From: Bacilli bacterium | Lineage (GTDB): Bacteria; Bacillota_I; Bacilli_A; RFN20; CAG-826 | Reading direction: 5' to 3' | DNA length: 64,000 nt | Assembly: GCA_045598525.1 (NCBI GenBank) | Contig: JAZLMH010000023.1 | Location: forward strand, 10,004 to 74,003 | Shown here: in pieces, positions 2,678 through 26,352 of the stretch | How positions within the stretch are numbered: the stretch's first letter is position 1 | How the letters are laid out: every line of letters starts with the position of its first letter | Program-made: the position numbers and the translations under genes | Notes under the pieces: model-generated | Database searches by the model: none | The model's input: only the letters and a program-made list of their open reading frames with translations | What the model was told of the DNA's origin: nothing

Positions 2678-2707
2678 TAAAAAAAGACTCGCCTTTTTGC
2701 GAGTCTA
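2678..2707 (-). terminator. Rho-independent terminator after the GGDEF gene
   Basis: A perfect 8 bp stem (agactcgc / gcgagtct) with a 6 nt loop. On the minus strand it is followed by a run of 7 U. It overlaps the stop codon of the 2705..3862 gene. Confidence 0.6.
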
Positions 2708-9075: not shown

Positions 9076-9088
9076 ATCAATACACCTC

Positions 9089-9727: not shown

Positions 9728-9770
9728 ATGTAAAAAACCTCTAATAAATCAGTGTTTAAAAAACACTGGT

Positions 9771-10094: not shown

Positions 10095-10132
10095 ATAATC
10101 AATATAACATCAATATTCTGATTGTTAATCAA

Positions 10133-10166
10133 TATTTAAAAGGACCCACAGGTTAATGCGGGTCCA
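10133..10166 (-). terminator. Rho-independent terminator after the CotH-like gene
   Basis: A ggaccc...gggtcc hairpin is followed on the minus strand by a U-run (tatttaaaag on plus). Confidence 0.45.
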
Positions 10167-10183
10167 TGCTTGTGCGTTTTTAA

Positions 10184-12529
10184 TTAGGAAAGTGTTGCTG
10201 GTGATTGGACATCGACATAGTCGAGGTTTGCGCAGTTTGACTGATGAACTGTAATGGTAACTTGGTTAGCTCCTGCTCTAAGGTTAGTCATACCAACTGG
10301 CATAGAGATGAATTCATGGTAGTCATCACTCGTGTATGCTGGAACATATTTATCAGCAGTTGGGTTGATTGTGTTTCCATTAACAGAAATTGTCATCAAG
10401 CTAGATAAGGTGGTGTAGTTATGTTTACCCCATCCAAGATAGAGATATGCGTCTGCTGCAGTAGAAGCGTTAACAGTGAAAGATAATATGTCACCACTTA
10501 CGAAGCTGCCAGCGTATCTGCCACCAGATGCTCCATATCTAGTTCCATCTTTGTTCATGATGGCCCCGCCGGTAAGACTCATGTTTTCAGCTTCATAACG
10601 ATGCTTTTGAGCAGTCTTAACGGTGTTATCGTCGTCGTTAAACTGGATATGTTGCTGCTGGCCGCCGCCTTGGCCACCTCCGCTACCAACTTCAGGAAGG
10701 TTCGGATAGATAACCGGGGCAGTTAATTGGAGATCGCCGTTTCCGTAAATGCCATCAAGATATAAGAATCTAGCGCTAACCCAGTTCATTAAATCCTGAG
10801 CAGCTTGTTTTTGATTTGTTCTAGCGTTTGCTCTATTGCATTTCTCGCTCATTCTCTGCCACTTCTGTGGCCATTTATTCTTTAAGTTAGTGAAATCGGT
10901 CTCGTAATTTGTAGCGACAGTGTCAATAAGGTTGAGAGAACTTTGGAATAAGTTGAAGTGTTTCATTTCTTGCCACTTCTGCTGAATCATATCCATGAAC
11001 CAATCTTCGTGGATGAGAACTGTAAACCACGCATTTGGATAGTATGGTTGTTTGTTTTGTCCTTTGTGGTTTGCTGCGAATGTGCTGCTTGTTGGGTCCT
11101 CCATTCTTGTGGTGACGCCATAACCGGAGTCATAGTCCCAAGGAGCTTCGAATGTTAACTTCTTGTCCCCTGTTGCGGACATATCAACATCAAGGTAGAA
11201 AGAAGAATAACCAACGTCTGGGTCGCATGCGATGTCTTGGAGAAGATACATGTCAACAAGCGACTGAACATTAACTGCTGCTTCAACACATTCTTTTGCG
11301 CTTGCAAATTCTCCAGCTGCTGCAGGAACAAGAGCAGAGTGGTCATCATTAAACTTATAGAATGTGTTCTGTTTTGCTGCTGAATACATTAATTTATAGC
11401 AGTTTTGCACGTAATTTTTGAAGAAGTTACGCTGTGCGTCGTTATATGTATCGCTCTTAATTGTGTATCCTCTGATGAAGTCTCTGACTGTATCTCCATC
11501 AAAGTTTGTCAATGAGTTTCCTTCATAGTTTATTGTGAAGGTGTAATCACCGCCGAGAGCAAGATTTTCCTGGTCATAGTAGTAGTCAAGCTCGCAGATA
11601 TAACCAATATCAGTCCCTTGATAATCGGTTGCTACCTTGGAAACGTTCATTCTTGTATCGCCTTCTTGCTGTTGTTCAGCTAAAAGGTAAACACCCCAAT
11701 ATTGACCATTAAGGTAAACATTAACGTGTCTAGAATCAGATGAATAAAGGCCATCTGCTCTAAGCATGTTGTTTGCCATGAAGAACGATAAGAAGTTATT
11801 GGTATTTGAGTTGTCCTTATAATCAGCGAGAAGAACCCATGATTTATATTTCTCATTACCGTTTAGTCCGAGCATCGACTGCTTCTTGTCGAACTTAATG
11901 CGAATACCTTTCTGAACATAATCAAGGGTATAGTTGCCACGAACTTTAACTCCGCCTGTTGCAGCTGTTATGTCTGTGTTTGCTTCGCCGTTAGAAACGG
12001 AAATAGAGGCGGTTTCGTAGTTGATTTCGTGTGTTAATTTGTAATCGCGGTTGTACTGGGTTGCCCAGTTATTGCTACCGCCGTTTGCTGTTGTTGTAAT
12101 ATCGATTCTTGGGAGCGATGCAGGTGTCTTCGCTGTAAATTGATAGGCCTGAGCGATTGCTGAGTCTTCTGCAGGTGGTGTGTAAGAAATAGGTTCTCTT
12201 GAGCTAGAAGCCGCTTGGCTTGACGAAGAAGCAGGTGCACTGCTGCTTTGTGCCGATGAACTTGAAGACTGGGCTTTTGAGGAGCTTGATTGCGCTTTTG
12301 AGGAACTGGATTGGGCTCTTGAAGAGCTTGATTCCGCCTTTGAAGAACTTGAGGAAGCTACTGAACTGCTCTTTGTTTCTGAAGACGCTACCGATGAGTC
12401 TGTCTTTGAAGATAAAGAGCTTTGTGCTTCTACCTTTGATTCTTCTTTGGAGGCTTGGTTGGTGCCACTGCATGCCGCAATCAAAGGCATAGCGAGAGCA
12501 AAAGCCATTAACTTAAATAAAGGTTTCAT
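10184..12529 (-). CDS. Secreted lipoprotein with a Ser-rich linker, a CotH-kinase-like central domain and a C-terminal carbohydrate-binding-module-like domain
   Basis: 781 aa. The signal has an LIAAC lipobox. About 70 aa of Ser-rich repeats follow. The central region has CotH-like acidic motifs (YLLQDIACDPD, EAPWDYDSGYG). The C-terminus is a beta-sandwich-like tail ending CANLDYVDVQSP. The family assignment rests on remembered motifs. Confidence 0.45.
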   Translation of the reverse strand: MKPLFKLMAFALAMPLIAACSGTNQASKEESKVEAQSSLSSKTDSSVASSETKSSSVASSSSSKAESSSSRAQSSSSKAQSSSSKAQSSSSSAQSSSAPASSSSQAASSSREPISYTPPAEDSAIAQAYQFTAKTPASLPRIDITTTANGGSNNWATQYNRDYKLTHEINYETASISVSNGEANTDITAATGGVKVRGNYTLDYVQKGIRIKFDKKQSMLGLNGNEKYKSWVLLADYKDNSNTNNFLSFFMANNMLRADGLYSSDSRHVNVYLNGQYWGVYLLAEQQQEGDTRMNVSKVATDYQGTDIGYICELDYYYDQENLALGGDYTFTINYEGNSLTNFDGDTVRDFIRGYTIKSDTYNDAQRNFFKNYVQNCYKLMYSAAKQNTFYKFNDDHSALVPAAAGEFASAKECVEAAVNVQSLVDMYLLQDIACDPDVGYSSFYLDVDMSATGDKKLTFEAPWDYDSGYGVTTRMEDPTSSTFAANHKGQNKQPYYPNAWFTVLIHEDWFMDMIQQKWQEMKHFNLFQSSLNLIDTVATNYETDFTNLKNKWPQKWQRMSEKCNRANARTNQKQAAQDLMNWVSARFLYLDGIYGNGDLQLTAPVIYPNLPEVGSGGGQGGGQQQHIQFNDDDNTVKTAQKHRYEAENMSLTGGAIMNKDGTRYGASGGRYAGSFVSGDILSFTVNASTAADAYLYLGWGKHNYTTLSSLMTISVNGNTINPTADKYVPAYTSDDYHEFISMPVGMTNLRAGANQVTITVHQSNCANLDYVDVQSPATLS
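12205..12420 (-). repeat. Tandem repeats encoding (S4-5 K/R A Q/E)n within the lipoprotein linker
   Basis: The protein repeats SSSSKAESSSSRAQSSSSKAQSSSSKAQSSSSSAQ, and the nucleotide level shows near-identical ~15 nt units. The overlapping ORFs 12034..12492 are repeat artefacts. Confidence 0.6.
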
Positions 12530-12586
12530 ATTTTATTACCTTCCTTGGCTACGATTATAGACCAATTATCAGGCTCAAAAAACTTT

Positions 12587-13531
12587 TTAATTTTTAAAAA
12601 GATTCGCTTCCAAAAAATCAGTAGCAACTTTTGTATATTTTACGTTATCAACAATAAAGCTTAATCCGTGTGGAGCGCCTTCTATTTTTAATAAATGAAC
12701 GTTAGGATTTGCCGTTTTTAATTCGTCGCTCATTTCGCAAGGGACATATTTATCAGCTGTTCCATGGACAATTAAGATAGGCCTATCTGCGTTTTTTATT
12801 GCTTTGAGAGCAGAACTCTCTTCTATGTTAAACCTGCCAATAATTCTTGCGGCCAGCTTAACAAAAGGTTTGCAGAAACCTGCTGGCAAACGCATATCTT
12901 TAATTACTTTTAAGATGATTCCTAAAGGCGAAGAGAACGGACAATCTGAAACAATGCATTTCACATTTGAAGGAAGCTTCTGGTCCAAAGCCATCAAAAC
13001 GGTTGCTCCGCCCATCGAAATACCAGTTATTAAGATGCGAACATCTTTTCCATACTCTTCAATTACATAATTAATCCATGAAAGAAGATCTTTTCTTTCG
13101 TTTATTCCAAAAGTGATAGTTTTGCCATCGCTTAACCCGTGAGCCCTGTGATCAATCAAGATAGCATTAAAATTTTGTTCCAAATAAAAACCGAGCCCCC
13201 CAGAGAAATCTCTAAGCCCGTCTCCTTGATAACCATGAGCAAGGATAACAAACGGCCTGCTTAAATCGTTTATGTAAACTCGTGCATGCAAATTTTTGTT
13301 GTCGAATGATTTAATCCAAGCGTCTTGGCATGGTATTGTCTCTACCGTTTTTATGAGCCTTCTCATCTCTTCGTCATATGGCTCATATTGTTTTCCTTGC
13401 AATGGCTCTTTGGCAGACGGTTTATTTTTTAATACGTTGTAAAAACATTTGAAATAGATAACGACCAAAAACGAAAAAACCGCAAGCACTAAAGCAGCAA
13501 TAACAATTAAAAGAATCAAATACCATTCCAT
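12587..13531 (-). CDS. Membrane-anchored alpha/beta-hydrolase (esterase/lipase-like)
   Basis: 314 aa with an N-terminal TM helix, a GISMGG nucleophile elbow (GxSxG), and downstream Asp/His residues. Confidence 0.75.
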   Translation of the reverse strand: MEWYLILLIVIAALVLAVFSFLVVIYFKCFYNVLKNKPSAKEPLQGKQYEPYDEEMRRLIKTVETIPCQDAWIKSFDNKNLHARVYINDLSRPFVILAHGYQGDGLRDFSGGLGFYLEQNFNAILIDHRAHGLSDGKTITFGINERKDLLSWINYVIEEYGKDVRILITGISMGGATVLMALDQKLPSNVKCIVSDCPFSSPLGIILKVIKDMRLPAGFCKPFVKLAARIIGRFNIEESSALKAIKNADRPILIVHGTADKYVPCEMSDELKTANPNVHLLKIEGAPHGLSFIVDNVKYTKVATDFLEANLFKN

Positions 13532-13533
13532 GG

Positions 13534-14658
13534 TTATTCTGCTTTTATTTGTTTGTTGGCCTTTTTGTTTTCATACATATTCTGGTCAGCTTTATCTAAT
13601 GCAGTTTCAAGAATTTCGATTTCAGGATTAAATTTTGTGTATCCATATGCAACTTCTGGTAGTTTGTATTCACTAATTTTGTTTCTTTCGATTTCTAGTT
13701 TTTCCAAGCATTCCTTAATCAATGCTTCGACATCACAATTTAGATTTTTGGTCGTGATACAAATGAATTCATCTCCGCCAAACCTATAGCATAAAAAATT
13801 GTTTTTGGTGAAGGTTGATTTGACTGCACCTGATATAATTTTGATTACTTCATCGCCAACAGCGTGGCCATATTTATCATTAATTTGCTTAAAATCATTG
13901 ATATCGAAAGAAACAATGACCTGAGCTTTATTCTCGGAGCTCTTTACATGAACGTCATAGGACAATCTGTTCATAAGTCCTGTCAACGAATCTGTTTTAT
14001 AACTAACCGAATACATATATGTGTAAAGCAATGTGAGGCCAATTATTGCAACTGGCCAATCAACCCTGATTTCGCTCCAAAAAAGGTGGATTGATAAACC
14101 AATAACGCCGTAGAAAAAGATCGCAATCAAGAATTGTATATCCTGTTTTTGGCTTCTTTCTGAATATCTTCCTGTCTCGAAAAGAAGATAGAAGATTGAG
14201 ACAAAATAACTGAGGTTGTAAATGAAATATAAATGAGCGTGGGCGTATACACCATTCTTGAATGTATAAATTAGCCATTCGAATTCGAAAGGCGCAGCAA
14301 CGCAGGAGACGATTTCTAACAGGAAGTTGAAAATAATGATTCCGAAAACGACACGGCAAATAGATTTTTTATATTTAAACCCAAGCGTCCAAACAAAGAC
14401 GGCAACAGGGGCCAAAGAATGTTCGAGCATTATCAAAACATCTCTAACAATGAAAAGGAATCCTTCCGTGGCACCACTTAACTTCTGATAACCGAATTCG
14501 CAAAGAGAAGACAATATCAAAATAATGAAGGTGACAGATGCAGAAATCTTTTTCCTTCTTTCAATAATTGGATTAGTCGTAATAGAGACTATTACCGATA
14601 ATGCGACTAAAACGCCTATTAAGATTATCGCTGAATAGAAATCCATTTTCTCCTCCAT
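13534..14658 (-). CDS. Membrane-bound diguanylate cyclase (GGDEF domain), second copy in the window
   Basis: 374 aa. About 8 TM helices are followed by a GGDEF domain (YRFGGDEF). It is co-directional and adjacent to the hydrolase gene. Confidence 0.8.
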   Translation of the reverse strand: MEEKMDFYSAIILIGVLVALSVIVSITTNPIIERRKKISASVTFIILILSSLCEFGYQKLSGATEGFLFIVRDVLIMLEHSLAPVAVFVWTLGFKYKKSICRVVFGIIIFNFLLEIVSCVAAPFEFEWLIYTFKNGVYAHAHLYFIYNLSYFVSIFYLLFETGRYSERSQKQDIQFLIAIFFYGVIGLSIHLFWSEIRVDWPVAIIGLTLLYTYMYSVSYKTDSLTGLMNRLSYDVHVKSSENKAQVIVSFDINDFKQINDKYGHAVGDEVIKIISGAVKSTFTKNNFLCYRFGGDEFICITTKNLNCDVEALIKECLEKLEIERNKISEYKLPEVAYGYTKFNPEIEILETALDKADQNMYENKKANKQIKAE

Positions 14659-14710
14659 ATCATGTTTTGTATTTTAACACGGCTTTAACTCCTTCCAAAA
14701 GGAGTTTTTG

Positions 14711-14740
14711 GGCACATAAAAGAAAAGTACCCTTGATGGG
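14711..14740 (-). terminator. Rho-independent terminator after the rubrerythrin-fusion gene
   Basis: A gtaccc-ttgat-gggtac hairpin is followed on the minus strand by a UUUUCUUUU run. Confidence 0.5.
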
Positions 14741-14764
14741 TACAGTTCTTATTTTCAAAGTTAA

Positions 14765-16003
14765 TTATTTAAAGAGTCTTTCTAAGAGGCCTTTTAATGC
14801 TTTTCCGTGTCTTGCTTCATCTCTAGCCATCTCATGAACGGTGTCGTGAATTGCATCAAGACCATTTTTCTTAGCACAGAGGGCAAGATCGGTTTTTCCT
14901 TGTGTAGCGCCAAATTCACAATCAACTCTCCACTTTAGGTTTTCTTTTGTGGACTCTGTCATCTTTGGCTCGATTTCGCTTCCAAGTAATTCAGCAAATT
15001 TTGCTGCGTGTTCTGCTTCTTCATAAGCGGCTTTTTCCCAATATAAGCCAGCCTCTGGATAACCTTCTCTATGAGCGATTCTAGCCATGCAGAGATACAT
15101 TCCAACTTCGGAGCATTCTCCAGCAAAATTGGCTTTTAATTGTTCTAAGATGTAGGCTTTGTCTTCTTCAGAAACAGCTGGATTGTTCTTAACTGTTTTT
15201 GCATAAACGCCAAATTCGTGTTCTGCTGCAAGCTTCATTTCTCCTTCAACAATAGTGAATTTTTCTCCTCTGACATGGCAGACTGGGCATTCTGCTGGTG
15301 GTTGATCACCTTCGTGGACGTATCCACAAACAGGGCAAACATATTTTTTCATTTTTTGGTTCTCCTTTATGTTTATTTGTTTATTATTAATTTTTTCGAA
15401 ATCTGAAGCTGGATGCTTGCATATTGGGCAAATGAAGTTTTCTGGTAATTCTTCCCCTACATACTCATATCCGCAGACAGTACAGCGCCAGATTATTTCG
15501 CCATTTGGCATAGTTCCCACGGGAATTGGCTTAGGCTTGATGTTCTTCTGATAGAAGTCGTATGTAGCAGACGCTTCTTCACTAATAACTTCCATTTCAG
15601 TTATGGTTCCAACAAACTCTGTATGCGAACCCAAATCGATTGTTTTTGCAACTTTCACTGAAATAAAAGCGTTGGTGCCATTTGAAATATAACAGATACC
15701 GTTCTTGCTTCTTTTTGAAAATTTGAAAGACTCAAACTTGTTGACCGCCTTGCCGCTTTGGAATCCAAAATGTTTAAACAAATCAAACGTTGCAGATTCG
15801 GAAATAACGGAAACGTTGAATAATCCAGTTTTCATGATTAAATCATGAGTTAGATTTTCTTTGTTTACTGAAACGCTCAATTGCAAAGGTTCGGAAGCAA
15901 TCTGAATCGCGGTATTAATGATGCAGCCGTTGTCTTTTTCGCCATCACGTACAGTGAGAACAAATAAGCCATAGCTGAGCTTATGCATTGCTTTGGTGTT
16001 CAT
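14765..16003 (-). CDS. Fusion protein of a flavin reductase-like domain, two rubredoxin-like domains and a reverse rubrerythrin diiron domain
   Basis: 412 aa. The N-terminal ~150 aa is flavin-reductase-like. Two CxxC...CxxC rubredoxin modules follow (CTVCGYEY..CPIC and CPVCGYVHEG..CPVC). The C-terminal ferritin-like domain has paired E...ExxH motifs. Confidence 0.8.
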   Translation of the reverse strand: MNTKAMHKLSYGLFVLTVRDGEKDNGCIINTAIQIASEPLQLSVSVNKENLTHDLIMKTGLFNVSVISESATFDLFKHFGFQSGKAVNKFESFKFSKRSKNGICYISNGTNAFISVKVAKTIDLGSHTEFVGTITEMEVISEEASATYDFYQKNIKPKPIPVGTMPNGEIIWRCTVCGYEYVGEELPENFICPICKHPASDFEKINNKQINIKENQKMKKYVCPVCGYVHEGDQPPAECPVCHVRGEKFTIVEGEMKLAAEHEFGVYAKTVKNNPAVSEEDKAYILEQLKANFAGECSEVGMYLCMARIAHREGYPEAGLYWEKAAYEEAEHAAKFAELLGSEIEPKMTESTKENLKWRVDCEFGATQGKTDLALCAKKNGLDAIHDTVHEMARDEARHGKALKGLLERLFK

Positions 16004-16196
16004 TTTTGGTCCTTCCCTATTATTTTAACATCAAAAAATATTTGGTAAAAATAATGCTCATTTTTTGTTAACTACGTTATTTGTTTTTCAAAACGATTTA
16101 CAAAAAGATAATTAAAAAAACACTGATAAGAATCTCTTTTTTTACAAAAAAGAAAGACAGATATTATAAAAGTGTTCATTTTTTGACATATAAAAC

Positions 16197-16224
16197 TTGC
16201 AAGATGTTTTTCCCTAGATATTAT
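16197..16224 (+). promoter_or_regulatory. Candidate sigma-A promoter (TTGCAA-16-TATTAT) directly upstream of the riboswitch
   Basis: The hexamers were read by eye, with -35 ttgcaa at 16197..16202 and -10 tattat at 16219..16224. The predicted +1 falls at the aptamer 5' end. Confidence 0.35.
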
Positions 16225-16225
16225 T

Positions 16226-16302
16226 TAACAGCGTTAAAGGCAAAACCGTGGCAACGCGGCGACGCAAAACTAAAGGGCCCCATTGGGGCAGCCAGTTACC
16301 GT
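16226..16302 (+). promoter_or_regulatory. GEMM / c-di-GMP-I-like riboswitch in the 5' leader of the 16351..22753 operon
   Basis: The leader carries AAAGGCAAAACC, a CCGUG-GCAA-CGCGG hairpin with a GNRA loop, CGACGCAAAAC, a GGGCCCCAUUGGGGC P3-like hairpin, and GCAGCCAGUUACCG. These parallel the V. cholerae Vc2 aptamer elements GGGCAAACC / GAAA loop / GGACGCAAAGCC / GUUACCGA. Downstream, a CCUC-CAAA-GAGG hairpin can sequester the SD. Confidence 0.65.
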
Positions 16303-16344
16303 AAAAATTGAGGTGGTTTTATTCTTAAACCCCTCCAAAGAGGA

Positions 16345-17187
16345 ATGGCAATGGAAAAAAGGTACAAAAGAAAAGCTGCTGCTCTCATGGGCCTCACAGT
16401 TCTTTCTTGTGGAACATTGTTTGTTTCTTTAACGGCTGCTTGGTTCACAACCTTAAGGCAGGCACAGAATAACACAGAAGGCTTCAAGATTGGTGACACT
16501 GTACTCATCGAAGAGATCAAATTCTATCAACATAAATCAACCACTAACGGCTTAATCGATTTTTATCCAGCCGAATCAACCTACGAAATCGGAGATGGGA
16601 GATATAAGTCAGACCTGGGCTTCTATAACCTTCTCGAATCAAATTACCAAACTTTAATGGAAATCACCCTAACAAAAGATGCCGTTGATGGAGAATATGA
16701 ACTCGACTTCAACGCCACCACTTTCGCTACCCAATCTCATTTGACAGCCAACTCAACGGGTTCGCCAAATTACCCTTTAACAAACGACCCTTCGAGAAAC
16801 AATAGTCTTTCTTCGATTATAGACTTTTATGTTTTCTTTCAGAAAGACGTACAAGTTAGCAATCAAAAAATAAGTCTCTCAAAAGCAGAGAACGAAAATA
16901 ACAGAGACATAAACAATAAAGAAATATGCAATTTTATAGATAAGAATGATGACATAGTCGAATCAAAATCTATAAATCTTGTTAGTTTTAACGCAAAAGA
17001 TATTGCTGTAGACGGAGTATCTAAAATCTATGTCATGCTCGACTACAACGAGGAAAACTGCGCAAAGATGTATGGTAACAACATCGGTAATACAGCCATC
17101 GAAAAAGGCCATTTTTTAAGGAAAGGAACGGACTTACCAATTTTGAAGTTCGACGCGGACTTCGAATTTGATTTGATCATGAAGTGA
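16345..17187 (+). CDS. Secreted ~280 aa protein with a TasA/camelysin-type (SipW-cognate-like) signal peptide; candidate TasA-like fibre or matrix subunit
   Basis: The N-terminus is a basic stretch, a hydrophobic core and an AAWFTT motif (compare TasA GGGTWAAFND and CalY GGGTFAFFSD). The C-terminal strand DFEFDLIMK resembles TasA QFSFEATQ. The real start is probably the ATG at 16351, 7 nt after the GAGG SD. Confidence 0.5.
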   Translation: MAMEKRYKRKAAALMGLTVLSCGTLFVSLTAAWFTTLRQAQNNTEGFKIGDTVLIEEIKFYQHKSTTNGLIDFYPAESTYEIGDGRYKSDLGFYNLLESNYQTLMEITLTKDAVDGEYELDFNATTFATQSHLTANSTGSPNYPLTNDPSRNNSLSSIIDFYVFFQKDVQVSNQKISLSKAENENNRDINNKEICNFIDKNDDIVESKSINLVSFNAKDIAVDGVSKIYVMLDYNEENCAKMYGNNIGNTAIEKGHFLRKGTDLPILKFDADFEFDLIMK

Positions 17188-20100
17188 TGAAGATAAGAGA
17201 AAAGATTAAAAAACTGTTACTTATCTTTGGCTTTACCGCCAGCGCTTTTGCAGTGCTTGTTTCTTCTACTTTTGCTTGGATTGTTTCTTCTAACAAAGTT
17301 CCTATGGGCAATACCACAGGTTATACTCAAGGCGCTTATTTCGCGCGCGGCCGCGGTACACATGATGACCCATACATTTTGAACGCACCAATTCACTTAT
17401 ATAACCTTGCCTGGCTCCAGGAAATGGGAAAATTCAATGTCATCGATGAGACCACGGGCAAATATGAGCCAGTCTATTTCGAGATGGAAGCAGATATCGA
17501 TGTCTCTGAAACCGAATATCAGAAACTTCCTCCAATTGGCACTCCTGAATATCCGTTTATTGGTAACTTCAATGGTGCAGGCCACACGATTTCCGGTCTT
17601 AAGACATGCAACGAATTAGGCAGCGGAGAGGATCAAATCCTTAGAAAGCCTTCAAGCGTAACAGACATCAGCAACGCAAATGTCATGGGTTTCTTTGGCG
17701 TCGTTGGACCATATAACGGAAATCCTTCAGCAGCCACATACAACAGCCAAGCAAACGAGATCAAAAACTTTAACATCAAAAACTATTCAATAATTTCCAA
17801 AACATCAAACCTTCTTGTCGGTGCCGTCGCAGGCTACATCAATGGAAAAATTTCAGAAGTTGCCGTTTCTAGTGAAGGCGATGGAATCACTTTCGATATT
17901 GGTGAAAGCACATCAAAATTAGGCACATTCAACAACCTCAGTGATTATGGTCTGGTCGGATATGCCGCAGAGGAATACAGAACCGAGTTAAATAACGAAA
18001 AGGTTGAAATTTATAACACGTTCATAACTGACGGTGATTCTGCAGGCAGTTCCTCAGGAAACCAAGACGCTTGGGGCGGAAACATTACCGCAGGAGATTT
18101 AAGCAACAGAATCAACACCCTTGCTGGCGACTCAGGAAACCAAACCGCTCTTAAATGGGAAAACAAAGTCAAAGAAAGAACGGCTTTTGTCGAAGGGGAA
18201 ACCGTCTATTCAGAAACAATTGTCGAGTACACCGATGAAGAATTAATGGTTGGAGCCTCCCAATATGAAGACGCAAACAACAAGTTAAAAGGCAAGGTTA
18301 TCTATGGAGAAAACCAAAACAATGATTTTTATGGTTCTTTAGACAGACCGGAAGAACTTGGCTATAGAGAAACTATTTATTCTCCTGGAGGGTCTGCTGA
18401 TTCTGACGACCCTGGCTCTGGATCTACAGGAGGAGGAGAACCATCAGACACACCAGGAGGAAACGTTGATATTCCTGGACGTCCAAAAAAATTTAAGGAA
18501 CCTACAACAGACGAATCCATTAACTACCAATATATCAAAGGCGGCCAATGGGGAGGCTTTGACAGTTTTAATGAAACTGAAGCTAACGGATCAATCTTTG
18601 AAAGAGATGAGCATTATATAATTACATTCACTGCGTCTAACAAATTTTATCTAGGTTTATGGAGCCTCGGGGAAAACGACGTAGTTCAATTAAACACAGG
18701 ACAATCTTATGTTTTCAGGGATTGGGGACAATATTTAAGACTTTGTGAGAGAAACGATTATGAGTCTGAAAAGCCGTGGTATCTCAGATACAACGGGCAA
18801 TCTCTAGTTTTGACAGGCAACGAAAGTTGGGCAAACGTTGTTTTCATCAACAACAAACTTCGTATTGACCCTACAAACATCACACATAACGCAAGAATTA
18901 CGTCTCCTACAACTGGATTAAATACCGCAGCCTTTAGCTATAACAATCAGGCATCTAAGTATTCCTTGCCAACAACTTTTCGTGCCAACGAGGGGCTTGT
19001 TCCTGTCCCTTATTACTTCCTCGAAAACCAAAATGGCGGATCACCAACAGTTACAAAAGATAGAAGCAATGCTACAAAGTTCACTTTAGACGCAAACAAC
19101 TTCTTGTTGTTTAAAAACAAAAGCGGAAACCAGGTTAACATCGGTACATATAACGAATGGACTTTTGAGCAATACGTTATTGCTAACGATAATTTAGGCA
19201 TGGCTTTTAGGGTCGTAGAGGAAGACGGAAAAAGCTACATCAGGCTTTACAAGAGAGTAACAAACGATAATGGAACAACATTGACTGCCCAAAGCCAGTA
19301 TTTGTATTACGATAACGTGTCTTTTGGTTATACAACGAATAGAGCAGAATCCAACGTCGTATTTGATGTTGAATCAAGCAAGCTTAAAACAGTCAAGTAT
19401 TGTCAAATAAGCGATTTAGGCGAGGATGACTATATCCCAACTACAAAGAACAAAAAACACGAAGAAAAGGTCGGTTCTTCCTACCTTCCTTTAAACGTAT
19501 ATAACACCACGCCGATCCCAGCCGAAGACCAAACAAACTTCTGGAACAATAGCACTCTCAATCCTGATGGATTAACTCCAGGTTTGTATACCCCTACACC
19601 AACAAATAATGGTTATGTCGTTGGCGGTACAAAAAATGATAGTGTCGATCTTACAGACGCAGCTGCAATTAAGTTTAATCAGTTCAGCGGCGTTGCCCCT
19701 TTTGGCGGAAACCAATTTGATGTTATGACTGTTAACCCTTCTTCTGGTCAATTCACATTTGTCAAAGATGACGGAGAATCTAGTGCAATATCTGCAAATA
19801 GAGAAACGCTTAGCCACATTCAAGACTGGAGCAAACACTCATATAGCGATTTAGGTCTACAAAGATTCAAAGAATCCAAAGCGACAATCGGAACAAAGCT
19901 TGGCACCGACCAAACTTTCATGCGCTTCAACGGAGTTAATATCAGCGATAAAGAAATCGTTACGGCAGATTATGCTTTATTTAATCAGCATATCTACAAA
20001 GATTATGAATTACCTGAATCTTCATTTGATTTCAAAGTTGAGGATGAGGTAGGAATCTTTAACATGTTCACAAGCGCTTATAGAGAAGGCGCGGATTGTA

Positions 20101-21206
20101 CAGGCTTTGCCTCTTTCTATCAAATCCTTAGAGATGGGGATGAAAAAATTACAGAAATCAAACGTATCAGTAAAATTTATGGCGACGATTCTGGCAATAT
20201 CGCATATCAGTATTTTGAAGACATCTCTTCTGCAACAACGGCTGATGGTTATTTTGATAGCGATCAGAATGCGGTCTCGATTACTGGATATACCTTAAAA
20301 TTCGACATGGCTTGGTTAGAGAGCCCAGGATTTGCAAACACCCATGCAGGTTGTTATTACTTCGAATGGCCGGCTGCCCAAGGCGAATACGCAATTGCAT
20401 CAACCCCAAATAGCGAAACAGAAGCAAAGAACGGCTATATGTATTATGTCGGAGTCGGTGCTCCAGTAGAAAACATTCAAAGAACACAAATCTATGAAAA
20501 ATACGTTAAAACAAAAACCTCCAGCACTGTTGTTAAAGGCGTTTATTTCGTAAACGACTTAAGCGATCCTCGCTCTTCAAGCAATAATCTTGCCATCAAG
20601 ATTGAAGATGGATTTACAGGCGTCATCTCTATTTCCTCAAACGCTAGCAACGAAGTCATCGTTGAAGGTTTTAATTCCACTACTACCGAACTAAATTACA
20701 AAAACTATGACACGGTATTCAAAGAGTCAAGCGACGCTTCGGACGAAATTGAAGTCGGGTCTTCGTCGGCAATAGAAACAACAGTAGAAAAAGTAACGTA
20801 TATCGACGGTGAAGGAGACAGCCAAAAAATGTATTCCATCACCAAGACTACAGTTAATAACAATGGCGTTTTAAGTGACCCTGTTAGAGAAGGCGTTTTA
20901 TATGAGACGATCGGGGCAGAACCTAAGAATTACGAAAACGCTGCAATGAATCCAACCAACACTAACGTCAATACTGTCATTTATGAGTTCCACTACACAT
21001 TTATAAAAGAAGATGTTATTGAGCTGACCGTGGCGTTCAAGCTTGATGACGGATCAATGACAACAGGCAAATATTACGTTACCTTTGAGGGTAACTCTGA
21101 AGACGTCAACATAACATTCAACGTATTCGACAGCGATGAGATTGGCATTTACCTAAATGACGCTCTGGTTGAAACGTTTACCATATTGGTGGAGGCTAAT
21201 TTATGA
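17184..21206 (+). CDS. Giant 1340 aa secreted protein with a SipW-cognate-like signal and a beta-helix-like N-terminal domain; putative adhesin or fibre-associated protein
   Basis: The signal is KKLLLIFGFTASAFAVLVSSTFAWIVSS. Just after it comes GRGTHDDPYILNAPIHLYNLAWL, the G-x-G-T-x-x-x-P-Y-x-I cap common at the start of pectin-lyase-fold beta-helices, then FIGNFNGAGHTISGL. A Gly/Asp/Pro-rich linker sits near residue 410. The start overlaps the upstream stop (GTGATG). No recognisable catalytic motif was found. Confidence 0.6.
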   Translation: MMKIREKIKKLLLIFGFTASAFAVLVSSTFAWIVSSNKVPMGNTTGYTQGAYFARGRGTHDDPYILNAPIHLYNLAWLQEMGKFNVIDETTGKYEPVYFEMEADIDVSETEYQKLPPIGTPEYPFIGNFNGAGHTISGLKTCNELGSGEDQILRKPSSVTDISNANVMGFFGVVGPYNGNPSAATYNSQANEIKNFNIKNYSIISKTSNLLVGAVAGYINGKISEVAVSSEGDGITFDIGESTSKLGTFNNLSDYGLVGYAAEEYRTELNNEKVEIYNTFITDGDSAGSSSGNQDAWGGNITAGDLSNRINTLAGDSGNQTALKWENKVKERTAFVEGETVYSETIVEYTDEELMVGASQYEDANNKLKGKVIYGENQNNDFYGSLDRPEELGYRETIYSPGGSADSDDPGSGSTGGGEPSDTPGGNVDIPGRPKKFKEPTTDESINYQYIKGGQWGGFDSFNETEANGSIFERDEHYIITFTASNKFYLGLWSLGENDVVQLNTGQSYVFRDWGQYLRLCERNDYESEKPWYLRYNGQSLVLTGNESWANVVFINNKLRIDPTNITHNARITSPTTGLNTAAFSYNNQASKYSLPTTFRANEGLVPVPYYFLENQNGGSPTVTKDRSNATKFTLDANNFLLFKNKSGNQVNIGTYNEWTFEQYVIANDNLGMAFRVVEEDGKSYIRLYKRVTNDNGTTLTAQSQYLYYDNVSFGYTTNRAESNVVFDVESSKLKTVKYCQISDLGEDDYIPTTKNKKHEEKVGSSYLPLNVYNTTPIPAEDQTNFWNNSTLNPDGLTPGLYTPTPTNNGYVVGGTKNDSVDLTDAAAIKFNQFSGVAPFGGNQFDVMTVNPSSGQFTFVKDDGESSAISANRETLSHIQDWSKHSYSDLGLQRFKESKATIGTKLGTDQTFMRFNGVNISDKEIVTADYALFNQHIYKDYELPESSFDFKVEDEVGIFNMFTSAYREGADCTGFASFYQILRDGDEKITEIKRISKIYGDDSGNIAYQYFEDISSATTADGYFDSDQNAVSITGYTLKFDMAWLESPGFANTHAGCYYFEWPAAQGEYAIASTPNSETEAKNGYMYYVGVGAPVENIQRTQIYEKYVKTKTSSTVVKGVYFVNDLSDPRSSSNNLAIKIEDGFTGVISISSNASNEVIVEGFNSTTTELNYKNYDTVFKESSDASDEIEVGSSSAIETTVEKVTYIDGEGDSQKMYSITKTTVNNNGVLSDPVREGVLYETIGAEPKNYENAAMNPTNTNVNTVIYEFHYTFIKEDVIELTVAFKLDDGSMTTGKYYVTFEGNSEDVNITFNVFDSDEIGIYLNDALVETFTILVEANL

Positions 21207-22753
21207 AATTAAACTTGGTTCTAATAGCTGCAGGAGTTTTTGCTCTTGCTAGTTGCGCAAATTCTAATAATGGGAGCGGCAGCAAGGCTCCATCAAGCAG
21301 TACTCAAAGCGAAAACAGCACTAAATTAGTTTTAAGTAACGACATCGAAAAAGCAGAAAGAGACATCGATAATTCTTTCAACGCTTTTATGTCTGCCAAA
21401 GATAATCAAACCAAGAATGCTTTGTTTTTTGGTCTAAATAAAGCAGCCGCAATAGCAGAGTTAAATCTTCATGGAAACATCGCATATGAAGGTCATGATA
21501 ACGGCGAAAATAGCGCTTTTGTCAAAGTGACAGCAGAACCAATGAGCCAAGCTTATGGTTTCCTTGAATCAATAGTCCTACAAGGCCACCCTAAAGAAAA
21601 CTACTCAGGAAAGAGTTTCTTCACCAGCCCTAATTCAAATAGGCTTGGCATTCTTACTTTCGAAGACAGGAATGAAGTAATAATCGAATATTGGAGTGAT
21701 TATCATATGGTAATCGGCAACGATGATGCTGGACCATATGTCTTATCTTTCAACTTTAGCGAAAAAGAACAATATCTCAATTATGAGACACCTTATTTTG
21801 GTTTCGTTTATAACAACGTTGAAGACAATTTCGAAGAAGATTATGAAGCTATAATGAACTTTGCTTCTTCTACTCTAGACGTCTCTTCAGCACCTTTTTC
21901 CATGGTTAAAGAAATCTATTTAGATGATGGAAGGGACCTTCACCCTACTTATAGTAGCGAAAATCCTGATCATGTTTTGTATAGCAAAGTTAAAAATAAG
22001 TATTTTAGCGATAACGTCCTTTCTGAAATCTATTTCAAAAAGAAATATTATGTTGGAGCACTTAATAGCCAAGACACATTAGAAATTAGCGACAACACAT
22101 TAAGAAGCGTGGATTACCTTTCAATGACTTTTGAACTAGATGTTCCTGAAGGAGTTACGACAATCGAAAAACTCTATGGCAATAGCGATAGAACGAACTA
22201 TATCTACTGCCTTCATCTTCCTAGCAGCGTAGAAACAATTCTTCCTTCAGCAATCAACGAAAATGTTATAACTGATTGCGTTTTTATCGATGGAGAAACC
22301 CCAAAGCCACAATTGGAATCTGTTTTAAAGGGATTTAATCCAGATATTAAAATCTATTATTCTCCAGATTTCCAAATTGTTGGAGGACTGTATGTCCCTA
22401 ATGCTTTCCATAACCAGTCCACAGAAGATGACCATGAACACGTATTCACTAAAAAGATTGCTTCAGAAAATATATTTTGCGAAGAAGCAAATTGCCAACA
22501 CCCAACAAGATATTTCTATTCTTGCAACGAATGTGACGCCACATCAATCGCAGTTTTTGAAGAGGGCGAGTTAGGCAGTCATATTTTCAGTGAAATTGAA
22601 ATGCAAAACAGGTTCCCTTGCATTGGGTATTTCGTATACGAACGCTGTGAAATCTGCAACGAGCAAACATCGACATGGGTCGACCCTGTGGACGAAGGCC
22701 ATGAATATAACGAAGACGGTCACTGCAGATACTGCGGTAAATTAAATAACTAA
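21203..22753 (+). CDS. Lipoprotein with BspA-type LRR-like segments and a Cys-rich C-terminal domain (putative zinc-ribbon-like)
   Basis: 516 aa. The signal has an LASC lipobox. A 4 nt ATGA overlap couples it to the giant gene, and GGAGG sits 9 nt upstream. The C-terminus has CEEANCQH...SCNECD...CIGYFVYERCEICNEQ...GHCRYCGKLN with eight or more paired Cys. Confidence 0.55.
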   Translation: MKLNLVLIAAGVFALASCANSNNGSGSKAPSSSTQSENSTKLVLSNDIEKAERDIDNSFNAFMSAKDNQTKNALFFGLNKAAAIAELNLHGNIAYEGHDNGENSAFVKVTAEPMSQAYGFLESIVLQGHPKENYSGKSFFTSPNSNRLGILTFEDRNEVIIEYWSDYHMVIGNDDAGPYVLSFNFSEKEQYLNYETPYFGFVYNNVEDNFEEDYEAIMNFASSTLDVSSAPFSMVKEIYLDDGRDLHPTYSSENPDHVLYSKVKNKYFSDNVLSEIYFKKKYYVGALNSQDTLEISDNTLRSVDYLSMTFELDVPEGVTTIEKLYGNSDRTNYIYCLHLPSSVETILPSAINENVITDCVFIDGETPKPQLESVLKGFNPDIKIYYSPDFQIVGGLYVPNAFHNQSTEDDHEHVFTKKIASENIFCEEANCQHPTRYFYSCNECDATSIAVFEEGELGSHIFSEIEMQNRFPCIGYFVYERCEICNEQTSTWVDPVDEGHEYNEDGHCRYCGKLNN

Positions 22754-22891: not shown

Positions 22892-22936
22892 AAAAAAAGG
22901 ACCGTCGTTTCTGACGGTCCGGGTTTGTTATTTCTT
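22892..22936. terminator. Bidirectional rho-independent terminator between convergent genes
   Basis: An 8 bp ggaccgtc / gacggtcc stem with a 6 nt loop is preceded by caaaaaaa and followed by gggtttgttatttctt. Confidence 0.65.
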
Positions 22937-22944: not shown

Positions 22945-25900
22945 TTAAGCTCCTTTTGGAGCTTTTTTCTTCTTAAGAACAAGAACGACTGCAACAGCAG
23001 CTGCTGCGACAACTGCGGCTGATCCTGCAGCGATGCCGACGATGAGGCCTGCGTTTGCTGGCTGGCCTTTATCGCCTGCTGATGTGCCATTGCCTGCGAC
23101 ATATTCGTTAACGTATTTATCAGCTGCGACATATAACTCGAATGAATAGCCATAGGTCTTTTCTGATGTAACGAATAAGATGTGGACGAAGCCGTTAAAT
23201 TCTTCTTCGACAGTACCTGAGATAACGTTGCCATTTAATTCAAGACCTGCTGGAAGAGGTGTTGCTGTACCAATCTTGATTTCTGCGCCAGAAACTGACT
23301 CTGGGGCTTCGATTTCGATTTCGATTGCGTCACCAACTTTTGCTTCTAAACGTTCATCGATGACGTTTGTTAATTTTGCATCAACTTCCTGGGTTAAGGC
23401 TGTCTGCATAGCACCAGAGTTAGCACACATCCACATTGCTTCTTTAGCGCATGTACGGACTGCATACCACCATGAGTATGATGGGGTATTTTCACCGCTA
23501 ATCTTACTCTTATAGACTGGGCAGTGTAATGTGTTGCTCCAACTTGCATTGACGTCCTCTTTGTAGCTCTGTGAGTCGAGTTGGTTGTTACAACCTGCTA
23601 AGACACGGTTGTTGATGTTTTCGTAGCACTTGCCGTTGAATGCACTGTTACCATGGTGGGTCATATCAGAGATGATAGAGCCTTTGAAGCCCCATTCATT
23701 TCTTAAGACTTCTGTTAATAAAGGATAGGAAGCAGCTGTTTCCATTAAACCTAAACGGTTATAGGAAGACATGATGCCTGTTGCTTTGCCTTCCTGGACA
23801 GCCATCTGGAATGGCTTTAAGTAGATTTCGCGGAGTGCCTGTTCGCTTAAGTAAGCGGTGACGCCTTCACGGTTCTTTTCCTGGTCGTTGACAGCAAAGT
23901 GTTTGAAGAAGCAGTAAATACCTAAATCGGTAGCGCCTGCAACGACCCTGCCACACATACGTCCACTTAAGAATGGATCTGCGGAGTAGTATTCGAAGTT
24001 ACGTCCGCCGAATGGAGAACGGTGTAAGTTACAAGCTGGACCAGCCCATCCGTAAGTACCGGATAAATGAGCCTCAGTACCAACCATTTCGCCCTGTTTC
24101 TTTGCAAGCTCAACGTTGAATGTTGCTGCAACGATTGGAGCGCCTGTCCACCAAATGATCTTGAATTGTGATGGGCCGTCGGAGTCGCCAGATGATGGCT
24201 TATCCATTCTGCTGATAGCTGGGTTGTGTTGGCTGCCGCCTGTGACGAAGTTAATCATTTCAGCGTAGGTCATCTGGTTCATGAATTCTTCCCATTTTGG
24301 GTCATCCATTGGTAAACCGACCATTTCTTTAAACTGAATTGATTGATCTTTTGTTAATGTTGTTTCTTGCTGAGTCCAGCCTAATGCTTCAATATCCTCT
24401 TTGGTCTTGTAAGCTGTTTTTGGCATGTACTCATAGTTTTCATCATGTTCGATGTCATCGAGTGAGAACTGGTGGTTGTAGAATTCTTGGACTCTGCTAC
24501 CTGCTTTTAATGTACGTTCCTCGATGGTTGGGTGATGTGGGAATGTTGCAGCAAAATCTTCACGTGAGAAGTGTTCGAAGCCAATGTCGTTTGCAAGAGG
24601 TAATGAGCTATAGAAATCTTGGCCTGAAAAACGGTTTTCAACTTTGTATCCAGTGAAACGATCTTTTTCGAACTGGATGCCGTTGTTCTTAACTCTGAAA
24701 TCAACAGAATCGAGAACTTCGTGTGCGTTTTTGCAAACATAGATGGAGTAATTTCCTTCATCAAGTTCATAGCCTTTGAAGCTGTTGTTGTTTGCATCTG
24801 TGTAGTCGTAGTTAGCAACATCAGCAATTGAGAAGCTTAATTCATAGATGTCTGATTCGCCTGGTTCAAGAACTTTTGTCTTGTCAAATGCGCATAAGAC
24901 ATGGTCTGCTTTTTCGATTCCGCCTGCTGTGTATGGTGCTTTCCAGTAAAGCTGGACAACATCTTTACCTGCGATATCCCCGGTATTTGTGACTTTAACT
25001 TTGACTCTGACTTCTTCAGATTCTTTTTCAAGGGTTCTGCCAGCAACTGTTGTTCCAACAATTTCCTGTTCGAATTCTGTGTAGCTTAAGCCATAACCGA
25101 ATGGGTAGATAACACCTTCTTCGCCTTCATACCAAGCGTCTGCTGCATCTTTACCTTCACTAGCGACTAAATCTTGATAGCGTGTTTCGTAGTAACGGTA
25201 GTCGACATAGACGCCTTCTTCGTAGCTAATGTATGAGGAAGGTTTGACGCCGTTAAGACCACTTTCGACAACTTTCTGAGCTTCTTCAATATATTTTGGA
25301 TCACTCTTTAAAGTGCCATCGCTTCTGACTGGTGTTCCATCTGCGTTGAACATGGTGTCCTGAGAAGCGTGCTTTAATCTGTTTGAAGTGTTTGGAAGAG
25401 CTTCGCCTGTGTGACGGTTGTCAGAGAAGTTCTGCCATGTTGGGTCCTTTGCGAAGTTACGTGCCCATGTGTCAACGGTGTGACCAGATGGGTTGACTTC
25501 ACCAGAGAGGATACGGCCAACTGCTGAAGCACCGTGAGCGCCTGGGTTGCCCATCCAAAGGACTGCTTTGACTTGGTCATCATCTTCAAACTGGTCACAC
25601 TGGAAGATGTTACCTGAGTTGATAAGGATGATGATGTTGTCAAATTTCTCGTGAAGCATATCAAACAATGCCTGTTCGTTGTCTGAAAGTTCAAGAGCGT
25701 GTTTTGTTGAATAACCAAACTGTGTTGAGTCGGTTGCGTCGATTGTTAAAAGGTCACAACCTTCGGAACCTTCACGGCTTAAGACCATGATGGCTGCATC
25801 ATTATATTCATCAAATGTTGCTTTTAATGTTTCGTCGTAGCTAGAGATTGGTGTTTCACCGATAGTGACCTGTGAGTTGCCTTTCCAGCCATCGTTACCG

Positions 25901-26352
25901 TTTGTACGTCCGCTGCCAGATCTGCTGTTGCTCTTATAGAAATCTGTGAGAGCGCCATTGATTTGGAAGCCAGCATCGGTTAAAGATCTCTGTAAATCGA
26001 TCTGGGTTTCGCCATTGACACGGCCGCTGCCTGAGCCACCGCCGCCATAGACAAGACTTGTGCTGCTCTTACCAAAGACGGAGATTTTTTCAACACCTTC
26101 CATAGGAAGGAAGCCATCTAAGTTCTTGAGAAGTGTAAAGCCTTCATTACAAATCTCATCATTCAAGGCAGAGCCAGCCTTGATGTAATCATCCCTATTC
26201 GTGTATTTTGCGATGAACTCGGTTTCCCTGAGAGTAGGAGCAGCCTCGTTTGCCGCAAGCATCGGAATAGAAAGACTGCTTAACATGAGCGTTAATAAAA
26301 ATTTTTTTATCATTCTTTCTTCTTTCCGCAACAAAAGTTGCAAAATGCGCAA
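22945..26352 (-). CDS. Glycoside hydrolase family 3 enzyme (beta-glucosidase/beta-xylosidase-like), cell-surface anchored by a C-terminal TM helix
   Basis: 1135 aa. It has an N-terminal signal peptide and GH3 motifs (KHFAVNDQE; GFKGSIISDM with the nucleophile Asp). The C-terminal hydrophobic helix is followed by KKKKAPKGA and has no LPXTG. Confidence 0.85.
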   Translation of the reverse strand: MRILQLLLRKEERMIKKFLLTLMLSSLSIPMLAANEAAPTLRETEFIAKYTNRDDYIKAGSALNDEICNEGFTLLKNLDGFLPMEGVEKISVFGKSSTSLVYGGGGSGSGRVNGETQIDLQRSLTDAGFQINGALTDFYKSNSRSGSGRTNGNDGWKGNSQVTIGETPISSYDETLKATFDEYNDAAIMVLSREGSEGCDLLTIDATDSTQFGYSTKHALELSDNEQALFDMLHEKFDNIIILINSGNIFQCDQFEDDDQVKAVLWMGNPGAHGASAVGRILSGEVNPSGHTVDTWARNFAKDPTWQNFSDNRHTGEALPNTSNRLKHASQDTMFNADGTPVRSDGTLKSDPKYIEEAQKVVESGLNGVKPSSYISYEEGVYVDYRYYETRYQDLVASEGKDAADAWYEGEEGVIYPFGYGLSYTEFEQEIVGTTVAGRTLEKESEEVRVKVKVTNTGDIAGKDVVQLYWKAPYTAGGIEKADHVLCAFDKTKVLEPGESDIYELSFSIADVANYDYTDANNNSFKGYELDEGNYSIYVCKNAHEVLDSVDFRVKNNGIQFEKDRFTGYKVENRFSGQDFYSSLPLANDIGFEHFSREDFAATFPHHPTIEERTLKAGSRVQEFYNHQFSLDDIEHDENYEYMPKTAYKTKEDIEALGWTQQETTLTKDQSIQFKEMVGLPMDDPKWEEFMNQMTYAEMINFVTGGSQHNPAISRMDKPSSGDSDGPSQFKIIWWTGAPIVAATFNVELAKKQGEMVGTEAHLSGTYGWAGPACNLHRSPFGGRNFEYYSADPFLSGRMCGRVVAGATDLGIYCFFKHFAVNDQEKNREGVTAYLSEQALREIYLKPFQMAVQEGKATGIMSSYNRLGLMETAASYPLLTEVLRNEWGFKGSIISDMTHHGNSAFNGKCYENINNRVLAGCNNQLDSQSYKEDVNASWSNTLHCPVYKSKISGENTPSYSWWYAVRTCAKEAMWMCANSGAMQTALTQEVDAKLTNVIDERLEAKVGDAIEIEIEAPESVSGAEIKIGTATPLPAGLELNGNVISGTVEEEFNGFVHILFVTSEKTYGYSFELYVAADKYVNEYVAGNGTSAGDKGQPANAGLIVGIAAGSAAVVAAAAVAVVLVLKKKKAPKGA

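Follow-up and report, generated by a model that had tools for sequence, protein, structure and literature searches.

Two copies of a c-di-GMP riboswitch-linked gene pair encode proteins with a family-specific, possibly TasA-like export signal in a Bacilli bacterium

Background

What are the four similar N-termini that lie in two places of one contig of a Bacilli bacterium, and which kind of peptidase would process them? The stretch in question comprises 64,000 nucleotides (GenBank assembly GCA_045598525.1, contig JAZLMH010000023.1, positions 10,004 to 74,003 of the forward strand) and is called the window below. A sequence-only reading had likened the four N-termini to the signals of TasA from Bacillus subtilis and CalY from Bacillus cereus, which are cleaved by the signal peptidase (SPase) SipW. 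We found that they belong to two copies of a conserved module of uncultured gut Firmicutes, in which a riboswitch of the cyclic di-GMP-I (c-di-GMP-I) class precedes the coupled genes of a small protein, A (~280 residues), predicted to be a beta-sandwich, and a giant protein, B (~1000-1340 residues), with a predicted GLUG-type beta-helix. The explanation proposed here is that the four N-termini are the export signals of these two copies, that the proteins are c-di-GMP-induced surface or matrix proteins, and that the signal is a TasA-like variant; we hold it with middling confidence, as readily doubted as believed.

Results

Two operons with four related N-termini

The elements that carry the argument are listed here in window coordinates, operon 1 first.

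16229 to 16303, plus strand: aptamer of the c-di-GMP-I riboswitch that heads operon 1 (RF01051; 61 bits, gathering score 35, matched over the whole model length)
16351 to 17187, plus strand: gene A, 278 residues, unannotated family (open reading frame, ORF, opens at 16345; 176 bits against a family hidden Markov model, HMM, free of window sequences)
16351 to 16440, plus strand: signal of A, residues 1-30, consisting of MEKRYKRK, 17 hydrophobic residues and SLTAA, as read from the sequence
17187 to 21206, plus strand: gene B, 1339 residues, with a predicted GLUG-type beta-helix domain after the signal (ORF listed as 17184/17187-21206)
17187 to 17276, plus strand: signal of B, residues 1-30, ending in STFA before W31 (junction W codon 17277-17279)
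49976 to 50049, minus strand: c-di-GMP-I riboswitch aptamer of operon 2 (RF01051, 55.2 bits against 35), ending 8 nucleotides before the ATG of A′
49095 to 49967, minus strand: gene A′, 290 residues, paralogue of A (106 bits against the window-free family HMM)
49967 to 49890, minus strand: signal of A′, ending in SSLA before W27 (W codon 49889-49887; context ...LATSSLA, WFSANRQ)
46180 to 49129, minus strand: gene B′, disrupted, split into three ORFs by two frameshifts

The ORF of A extends from 16345 to 17187 on the plus strand (280 residues), and the region 16345-17300 holds A together with the first residues of B. The second ATG, at 16351, is the probable start of A, in agreement with homologues and with the 278-residue NCBI product. 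The predicted junction of A lies between A30 and W31 (...FVSLTAA before WFTTLRQ; W codon 16441-16443) and that of B in the context ...LVSSTFA then WIVSSNK. In the sequence TGATG, the ATG of B (17187) shares bases with the stop codon of A, and the two genes are translationally coupled.

In operon 2, A′ shares 18% identity with A and both keep the junction motif. The probable start of B′ is the ATG at 49105, and its signal ends in GTFA before the W (codon 49018-49016; context ...IAVGTFA, WFIVAVP). Both frameshifts of B′ are single-base deficits in homopolymers, one in the C run 48900-48898 (C3) and one in the T run 46896-46892 (T5); one base added at each site gave a continuous ORF of 983 residues. 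This repaired B′ scored 107 bits with a B-family HMM built without window sequences, and shuffled controls obtained no score with the HMMs. B and B′ resemble each other only across the first ~140 residues. Genuine decay of the gene, phase variation by strand slippage or a local assembly error could each account for the breaks. Unlike B′, the remaining long ORFs of the window are intact.

All four N-termini combine a K/R-rich start, ~21 uncharged residues and (T/S)-x-A-W-(F/I). The sequence-only reading had described them as a basic start, a hydrophobic core and the motif, and every string that it quoted does occur in the sequence. It had counted four proteins, which holds for the genes A, B and A′, whereas the 83-residue ORF 49129-48878 is the N-terminal fragment of the split B′; likewise the N-terminus that it placed at 49095 exists with the quoted sequence but begins at 49967, 49095 being the 3′ end of A′. 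Among the 111 ORFs of at least 70 residues in the window there are ten AW[FIVL] tripeptides; four of the ten fall in these four ORFs, at residues 26-37, right after the N-terminal hydrophobic stretch.

Families A and B and the conserved junction

Gene A gave no match in Pfam or NCBIfam, and no Pfam domain was found in 73 aligned members of family A (A, A′ and 71 relatives). Word-based searching returned only 17 matches to A; a profile search of 1.84 billion representatives gave 201 (at 50% identity) with E ≤ 1e-3, nearly all of 250-310 residues and aligned end to end. For B we obtained 86 clusters at 90% identity, all named 'hypothetical protein', and the cluster names of A are likewise 'hypothetical'. 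The hosts are metagenome-assembled genomes (MAGs) labelled Bacilli bacterium, Eubacteriales bacterium and Acetatifactor sp. A profile search of genome contigs with a closer A alignment led to a single species match, the horse-faeces MAG 'Bacilli bacterium Horse_feces348', and exact look-ups of the proteins P0001 and P0212 returned no record. Judged by sequence, A and B are two unannotated families that form a paired module, and literature searches found no description of either.

The pairing was followed in related loci, named here by L numbers; thirteen of them and the window together amount to 218 kb. At every locus whose surroundings were retrieved, a giant B (~1060-1520 residues) comes after A, namely in L001, L004, L005, L006, L007 and L012 and twice in L013; L010 is a short contig with A alone. 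L001 keeps the order hydrolase, GGDEF, riboswitch, A, B. Several copies in one genome, each switched separately, are a wider pattern to which the two copies in the window belong. In L013, from a 'Bacilli bacterium' MAG, two A-B pairs stand in tandem at positions 8977-20203; a c-di-GMP-I aptamer precedes either pair (59.8 and 59 bits), and a promoter-like site stands before the second. L004 (9983-19613) has an A-B pair without a riboswitch, directly after rpoB-rpoC and followed by three lipoprotein genes.

The alignment of the 73 family-A sequences has 18% mean column identity, yet every sequence has the W of the junction, and the A before it and the F after it are each found in at least 90%. 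Site statistics were taken from 143 representatives picked by the pattern [AGS]-W, so that position +1 is W in 143/143 by construction and position -1 is limited to A, G or S. With this limit, -1 was A in 131 (92%), S in 9 and G in 3; position -3 was T in 82 and S in 29 (T/S in 111/143, 78%), and -5 and -4 were small or polar. On the other side of the junction, +2 was F in 123 and Y in 16 (F/Y in 139/143, 97%), and +4 and +5 were N followed by R/K. Six representatives fell outside the [AGS]-W pattern, two of them with C-W-F. In the B family, (T/S)-x-(A/S/G)-W-(F/I/Y/V) was present in ~82 of 84 N-termini; the other two are N-terminally truncated, and in these the pattern took an internal NLAWLQ. 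Behind the junction, B sequences are variable up to the conserved beta-helix start G-x-x-x-AYFA-x-G-x-G-T, and family A has a conserved segment of ~12 residues with alternating polarity. The uncharged stretch before the W has a median length of 21 residues in both families (interquartile range 20-23), the same length as in TasA and CalY.

The combination of small residues at P3 and P1 with an aromatic P2′ is found in family A, in the B family and in the four window proteins, where +2 is F or I. The junction has the appearance of a textbook signal-peptidase site with aromatic P1′ and P2′, as in TasA and CalY, and the N-terminus as a whole looks like a family-specific Sec-type export signal in both A and B. 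Nothing but the junction is common to the unrelated A and B; for this reason it is more likely a site recognised in a shared processing step than a structural part of the mature proteins.

The same N-termini could instead stay uncleaved, as the sequence-only reading had also considered. A and B would then be type II membrane proteins, each tethered by a single transmembrane helix, with the A-W-F motif serving as an interfacial belt, as an A-B helix contact or as both. Helices that meet a membrane interface typically have Trp and Phe at their ends, and those of the motif fit this general pattern. A stretch of median 21 uncharged residues is long enough to cross a bilayer, structure prediction with AlphaFold2 (AF2) models a continuous helix through the junction in A and in B, and B has no other anchor. 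The translational coupling of A and B suits a stoichiometric membrane complex, many of the 'Bacilli bacterium' host MAGs are lipoprotein-rich, which hints at reliance on membrane tethering, and an aromatic P2′ disfavours cleavage by P-type SPases (PMC10269814). An anchor, on the other hand, would not require Ala at -1 (92%), Thr/Ser at -3 (78%) and small polar residues from -5 to -3, which is the (-3,-1) rule of cleaved signals; and TasA and CalY have the same 21-residue geometry yet are cleaved (PMC10269814). Because of the -3/-1 pattern, a cleaved type I signal is favoured over a pure anchor, which is the rival to be taken seriously and which we regard as possible but somewhat doubtful.

Comparison with TasA-type signals

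The model of the SipW-cognate signal, TIGR04088, has a curated cut-off of 19 bits. Control sequences gave 38 bits for TasA and 48.6 bits for CalY; the TasA control is sound because it scored 514 bits on the TasA equivalog model. The sequence-only reading had proposed this model as a check on the four N-termini. Neither the four full window proteins nor their isolated N-termini matched at E ≤ 10, and this part of its case fell. In family A, 2/73 members matched at E ≤ 1, the best with E 0.003.

Idealised queries were made from the HMM consensus line for A and by hand from the B-family N-termini for B. TIGR04088 was the top NCBIfam match of both, with 16.3 bits for A and 17.5 bits for B, below 19 in each case. 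Altered A consensus queries and further controls behaved as follows.

A consensus with W changed to Y: 18.5 bits
A consensus with W changed to Y plus S-D: 21.4 bits
A consensus with W kept and SDTET added: 24.8 bits (from 16.3)
A consensus with WF changed to QE: no match
A consensus with TFAWF scrambled: no match
Eight ordinary signal peptides: no match

Window A itself stayed without a match after the W-to-Y or the S-D substitution. The resemblance to TasA thus looks specific and seated at the junction, at a level below the family threshold. TasA-type signals have an acidic S/T-D-x-E after the junction; in its place the family consensus has (T/S)-x-N-(R/K). By sequence, the proteins do not match TasA or camelysin: PF12389 was found in 0/73 members, and no TasA, BsaA or TapA model (NF046066, TIGR04090 class) matched. 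Weak matches to TIGR04313 ('aromatic motif membrane protein') were set aside, as they persisted without the WF and reflect the MKKK-hydrophobic start only.

What survives of the TasA/CalY likeness is the small P3 and P1, the aromatic P2′, the 21-residue stretch and the motif-dependent match of the consensus; what does not is the TIGR04088 match and the acidic segment. We consider a SipW-type interpretation partly supported by these sequence comparisons, formal TIGR04088 membership being absent.

Could the likeness be that of ordinary signal peptides, alike by chance or through recent duplication? A/A′ and B/B′ are paralogous and some similarity is to be expected. A and A′ have only 18% identity and nevertheless keep the motif, the unrelated families A and B both carry it, hundreds of distant homologues show it without variation, and ordinary signal peptides gave no TIGR04088 match. 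Given this conservation of the motif, a chance origin is excluded for practical purposes, and we assign it next to no probability.

For the enzyme, ORFs were searched with Pfam and NCBIfam. No S24/S26 peptidase was found in the substantive window ORFs of at least 120 residues; the scan left out the ORF 686-1150 (plus strand), which overlaps a malic-enzyme gene, and covered 14765-16003 with NCBIfam only. No SPase serine box (xxSMxP) was present in an open frame of the window and the 13 related loci (218 kb). The claim that the 64 kb hold no sipW or other SPase I gene is borne out by both scans. In published work on these enzymes, Escherichia coli LepB was a poor protease for substrates whose P2′ is aromatic, and TasA, which has Phe at P2′, depended on SipW, a peptidase of the endoplasmic reticulum (ER) type (PMC10269814). 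In families A and B, P1′ is Trp and P2′ nearly always Phe or Tyr.

Predicted structures of A and B

The AF2 model of A shows an N-terminal helix and a beta-sandwich of ~250 residues (predicted local distance difference test 77.8, predicted template modelling score 0.74). In a Foldseek search of the PDB with this model nothing scored below E 0.01, and TasA was not in the top 50; the weak matches include the donor-strand pilins FimA and CfaE (E 0.05-0.14).

These matches bear on the idea of a TasA/TapA-like fibre, in which a cut between A and W frees a new strand of A, W-F-T-x-N-R-x-V-x-A, that enters the next subunit by donor-strand exchange, so that a c-di-GMP-induced fibre carries B or is nucleated by it. 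Beside the FimA and CfaE matches, the conserved ~12 residues of alternating polarity in A speak for it, as do the ~250-residue beta-sandwich of about the size of TasA and the presence of one signal type on two co-transcribed proteins, as in TasA plus TapA (PMC9674648, PMC10151520). The proteins have no sequence match to TasA or camelysin, though, TasA is not among the top 50 fold matches of A, AF2 does not place the A segment as a strand, and the residues after W-F are variable in B, so that a common donor strand is unlikely. On balance a fibre of this kind is quite unlikely.

The best PDB profile match of A was a Methanospirillum archaellin (5tfy, E 0.05), covering the helix and the first beta strands. 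Together with the similar layout, in which a beta domain comes after a long N-terminal helix, it would suit a protein of type IV pilin or archaellin kind that is matured by a prepilin peptidase and whose N-terminus is a retained alpha-1 helix. A match at E 0.05 lacks significance, and since the hydrophobic helix drives it, we rejected the relation to 5tfy as an artefact. In addition, the 73 members contain no class III signal, with neither a conserved G/A before the hydrophobic stretch nor a Glu at +5, and pilus assembly genes were found neither in the window nor in any related locus. Such an origin is very improbable.

For B, the first 520 residues were modelled with 45 homologues, and AF2 was confident for residues ~55-260. 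In Foldseek, the N-terminal domain matched the 'putative IgA1 protease' BACOVA_03286 (PDB 3n6z) with E 1.5e-4 and probability 1.0. Pfam gave no PF07581 (GLUG) match for B itself, and the weakest match of the B family carries this domain. The conserved G-x-G-T-x-x-x-P-Y-x-I...L-P-P-I-G...F-x-G-x-F-(N/D)-G of B fits the start of a GLUG-type right-handed beta-helix. According to the model, then, the N-terminal domain of B is a GLUG-type beta-helix; the other ~1000 residues have no known relatives.

Riboswitches and their direction of control

Both window aptamers cover model positions 1-87 of RF01051 and lie above the gathering score. An aptamer of c-di-GMP-I type stands directly upstream in 10/11 A(-B) loci examined, the exception being L004; that of L010 was found with the UAU variant model, below the gathering score of that model. 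Seven further aptamers in relatives occupy the same position with 48.6-62.5 bits.

In the ViennaRNA minimum-energy folds of the L005, L012, L001 and both L013 leaders, the 3′ strand of the aptamer is paired in a hairpin that is followed by a U-run, and in the L007 leader it pairs with the ribosome-binding site (RBS). When the aptamer was enforced, RBS accessibility remained unchanged or rose in 7/9 leaders. The unconstrained folds of the two window leaders have unremarkable energies (z-scores -0.7 and -0.07). From these models the riboswitches are rather probably ON switches, in which the ligand-bound aptamer would remove a terminator or a sequestering helix. The direction agrees, by analogy, with the known c-di-GMP-induced adhesins behind riboswitches.

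Two genes of membrane GGDEF diguanylate cyclases lie at most 14 kb from riboswitch 1, at 2705-3862 and 13534-14658, both on the minus strand.

13534 to 14658, minus strand: membrane GGDEF diguanylate cyclase, divergent from operon 1 and syntenic in L001

An alpha/beta hydrolase gene (12587-13531) and the second GGDEF gene are syntenic with the A-B pair in L001.

Further features of the operons and neighbouring genes

The remaining elements of the two operons are these.

16197 to 16224, plus strand: promoter-like site TTGCAA-16-TATTAT directly 5′ of riboswitch 1, a pattern match from a consensus scan
21203 to 22753, plus strand: gene C, a 516-residue lipoprotein with the lipobox LASC and a Cys-rich C-terminus, overlapping the end of B by 4 nucleotides
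22899 to 22920, no strand assigned: bidirectional terminator-like hairpin at the end of both operon 1 and the GH3 gene that converges on it
42707 to 46177, minus strand: gene of a BspA-type surface protein with LRR_5 leucine-rich repeats and a conventional signal peptide, downstream of B′

Homologues of C are confined to the closest relatives of operon 1. C was considered as a core part of the module and rejected, as none of the 13 related loci has a homologue. C carries a C-terminal cluster of CxxC pairs (…CNECD…CEICNEQ…CRYCGK) and gave no family match. The LRR_5 gene contains an in-frame TAG (44959-44957) that divides it into ORFs of 406 and 724 residues, and the repeat pattern runs on past the stop.

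Between the GGDEF gene and riboswitch 1, 14765-16003 (minus strand) encodes a 412-residue protein that joins a flavin reductase-like domain and rubredoxin-like CxxC pairs to a rubrerythrin domain. The gene convergent with operon 1 encodes a 1135-residue GH3 glycosidase (22945-26352, minus strand) of permuted order, the Pfam 'C-terminal' domain (73-385) standing ahead of the 'N-terminal' one (741-930); L001 has a GH3 gene in the same place. Other envelope-related genes of the window are those of a CotH kinase-domain protein, a Cthe_2159 carbohydrate-binding-domain protein and two TMEM164-family membrane proteins, at 10184-12529 (minus), 32710-34758 (plus), 30709-31434 (minus) and 38615-39436 (plus).

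Discussion

In the explanation that we propose, rising c-di-GMP, produced for instance by the GGDEF cyclases nearby, would switch on a surface or matrix adhesin composed of B and its partner A. The junction would serve as the recognition site of a processing enzyme common to both, namely a type I signal peptidase that cuts after the Ala and accepts aromatic residues at P1′ and P2′. Tolerance of aromatic P1′/P2′ is the property that makes TasA SipW-dependent; the enzyme would be encoded elsewhere in the genome. Operon 2 appears to be decaying or phase-variable.

Several observations weigh against this explanation. Cleavage is deduced from residue statistics, and a stretch of 21 uncharged residues would suffice for a membrane-spanning anchor as well; in the AF2 model of A, residues 2-43 form one helix, the part 25-45 with low confidence. 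To the failure of the window proteins, including the substituted A, to match TIGR04088 is added that no sipW, ER-type or other SPase I gene was found beside the 13 related loci. B lacks an LPXTG motif, a C-terminal hydrophobic segment and any recognisable wall or membrane anchor at its C-terminal end, and its retention at the cell is unexplained if the signal is cleaved. As regards induction, the window leaders shift little when the aptamer is enforced (RBS accessibility from 0.55 to 0.60 in operon 1 and from 0.73 to 0.74 in operon 2), and accessibility becomes lower in L005 and in the second leader of L013 (L013b), the latter figure being unreliable as the called start (TTG) lies inside the hairpin. 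A simple terminator scanner flagged no hairpin in the L005, L012 and L013b leaders, where the loops exceed 8 nucleotides and are too long for it; the ON direction is read from the ViennaRNA folds.

A more far-reaching idea is that the (T/S)xA-WF junction is a dedicated sorting signal of a separate pathway of processing and assembly, in which a specialised ER-type or novel peptidase cuts both partners and the exposed Trp-Phe drives A into a fibre or base displaying the giant beta-helix protein B. The result would be a c-di-GMP-switched adhesive organelle, an analogue of TasA/TapA unrelated in sequence, in uncultured, possibly wall-reduced gut Firmicutes. We think this unlikely.

Compared with the signals of TasA and TapA (B. 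subtilis), CalY/camelysin (B. cereus) and BsaA (Clostridium perfringens), those of A and B have the same K/R start and the same 21 uncharged residues before the junction. The TasA-type junction reads G/S-T-aromatic-Ala, aromatic-Phe-Ser/Thr, and the aromatic P2′ is shared by A and B (PMC10269814). As in the TasA type, one kind of signal occurs on two co-transcribed matrix or surface proteins. Unlike in the TasA type, P1′ of A and B is an invariant Trp, the junction is followed by x-N-(R/K) and not by the acidic D-x-E, and the genes stand behind a c-di-GMP riboswitch. By sequence, the mature domains are unrelated to those of TasA, camelysin and BsaA, and while the operons of B. subtilis, B. cereus and C. 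perfringens contain sipW, the A/B loci examined are without it.

With respect to regulation, the closest known systems are adhesins and pili of Firmicutes under c-di-GMP riboswitch control. The Bc2 RNA-Cap system of Bacillus thuringiensis shows that the c-di-GMP-I class can act as an ON switch of an adhesin (PMC4933901), and the riboswitch regulon of Clostridioides difficile includes c-di-GMP-induced adhesins behind riboswitches (PMC6200980). In both, as here, a c-di-GMP aptamer lies in the 5′ leader of large surface-protein genes. In contrast to these targets, A and B are new families without an LPXTG/sortase signal, collagen-binding or pilin domains, they form a fixed small-plus-giant pair with a special N-terminal signal, and their regulation is predicted from sequence. 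The GLUG beta-helix of BACOVA_03286 (3n6z) probably has the same fold as ~200 N-terminal residues of mature B; unlike GLUG proteins, B has no PF07581 match, carries ~1000 further residues without known relatives and has no identified protease motif.

Riboswitch-controlled adhesins and SipW-type signals are both already known, and no new principle is involved. The analysis gives two unannotated families a candidate regulator, c-di-GMP, and a probable location, the surface or matrix. With its invariant Trp/Phe behind a canonical -3/-1 site, the signal adds to the few that are apparently tailored to a non-standard signal peptidase, and ...(T/S)xAWF... provides a sequence handle for finding the substrates and, by co-occurrence, the enzyme. 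For the Firmicutes, the module would add a widespread new class of targets to the c-di-GMP riboswitch regulon.

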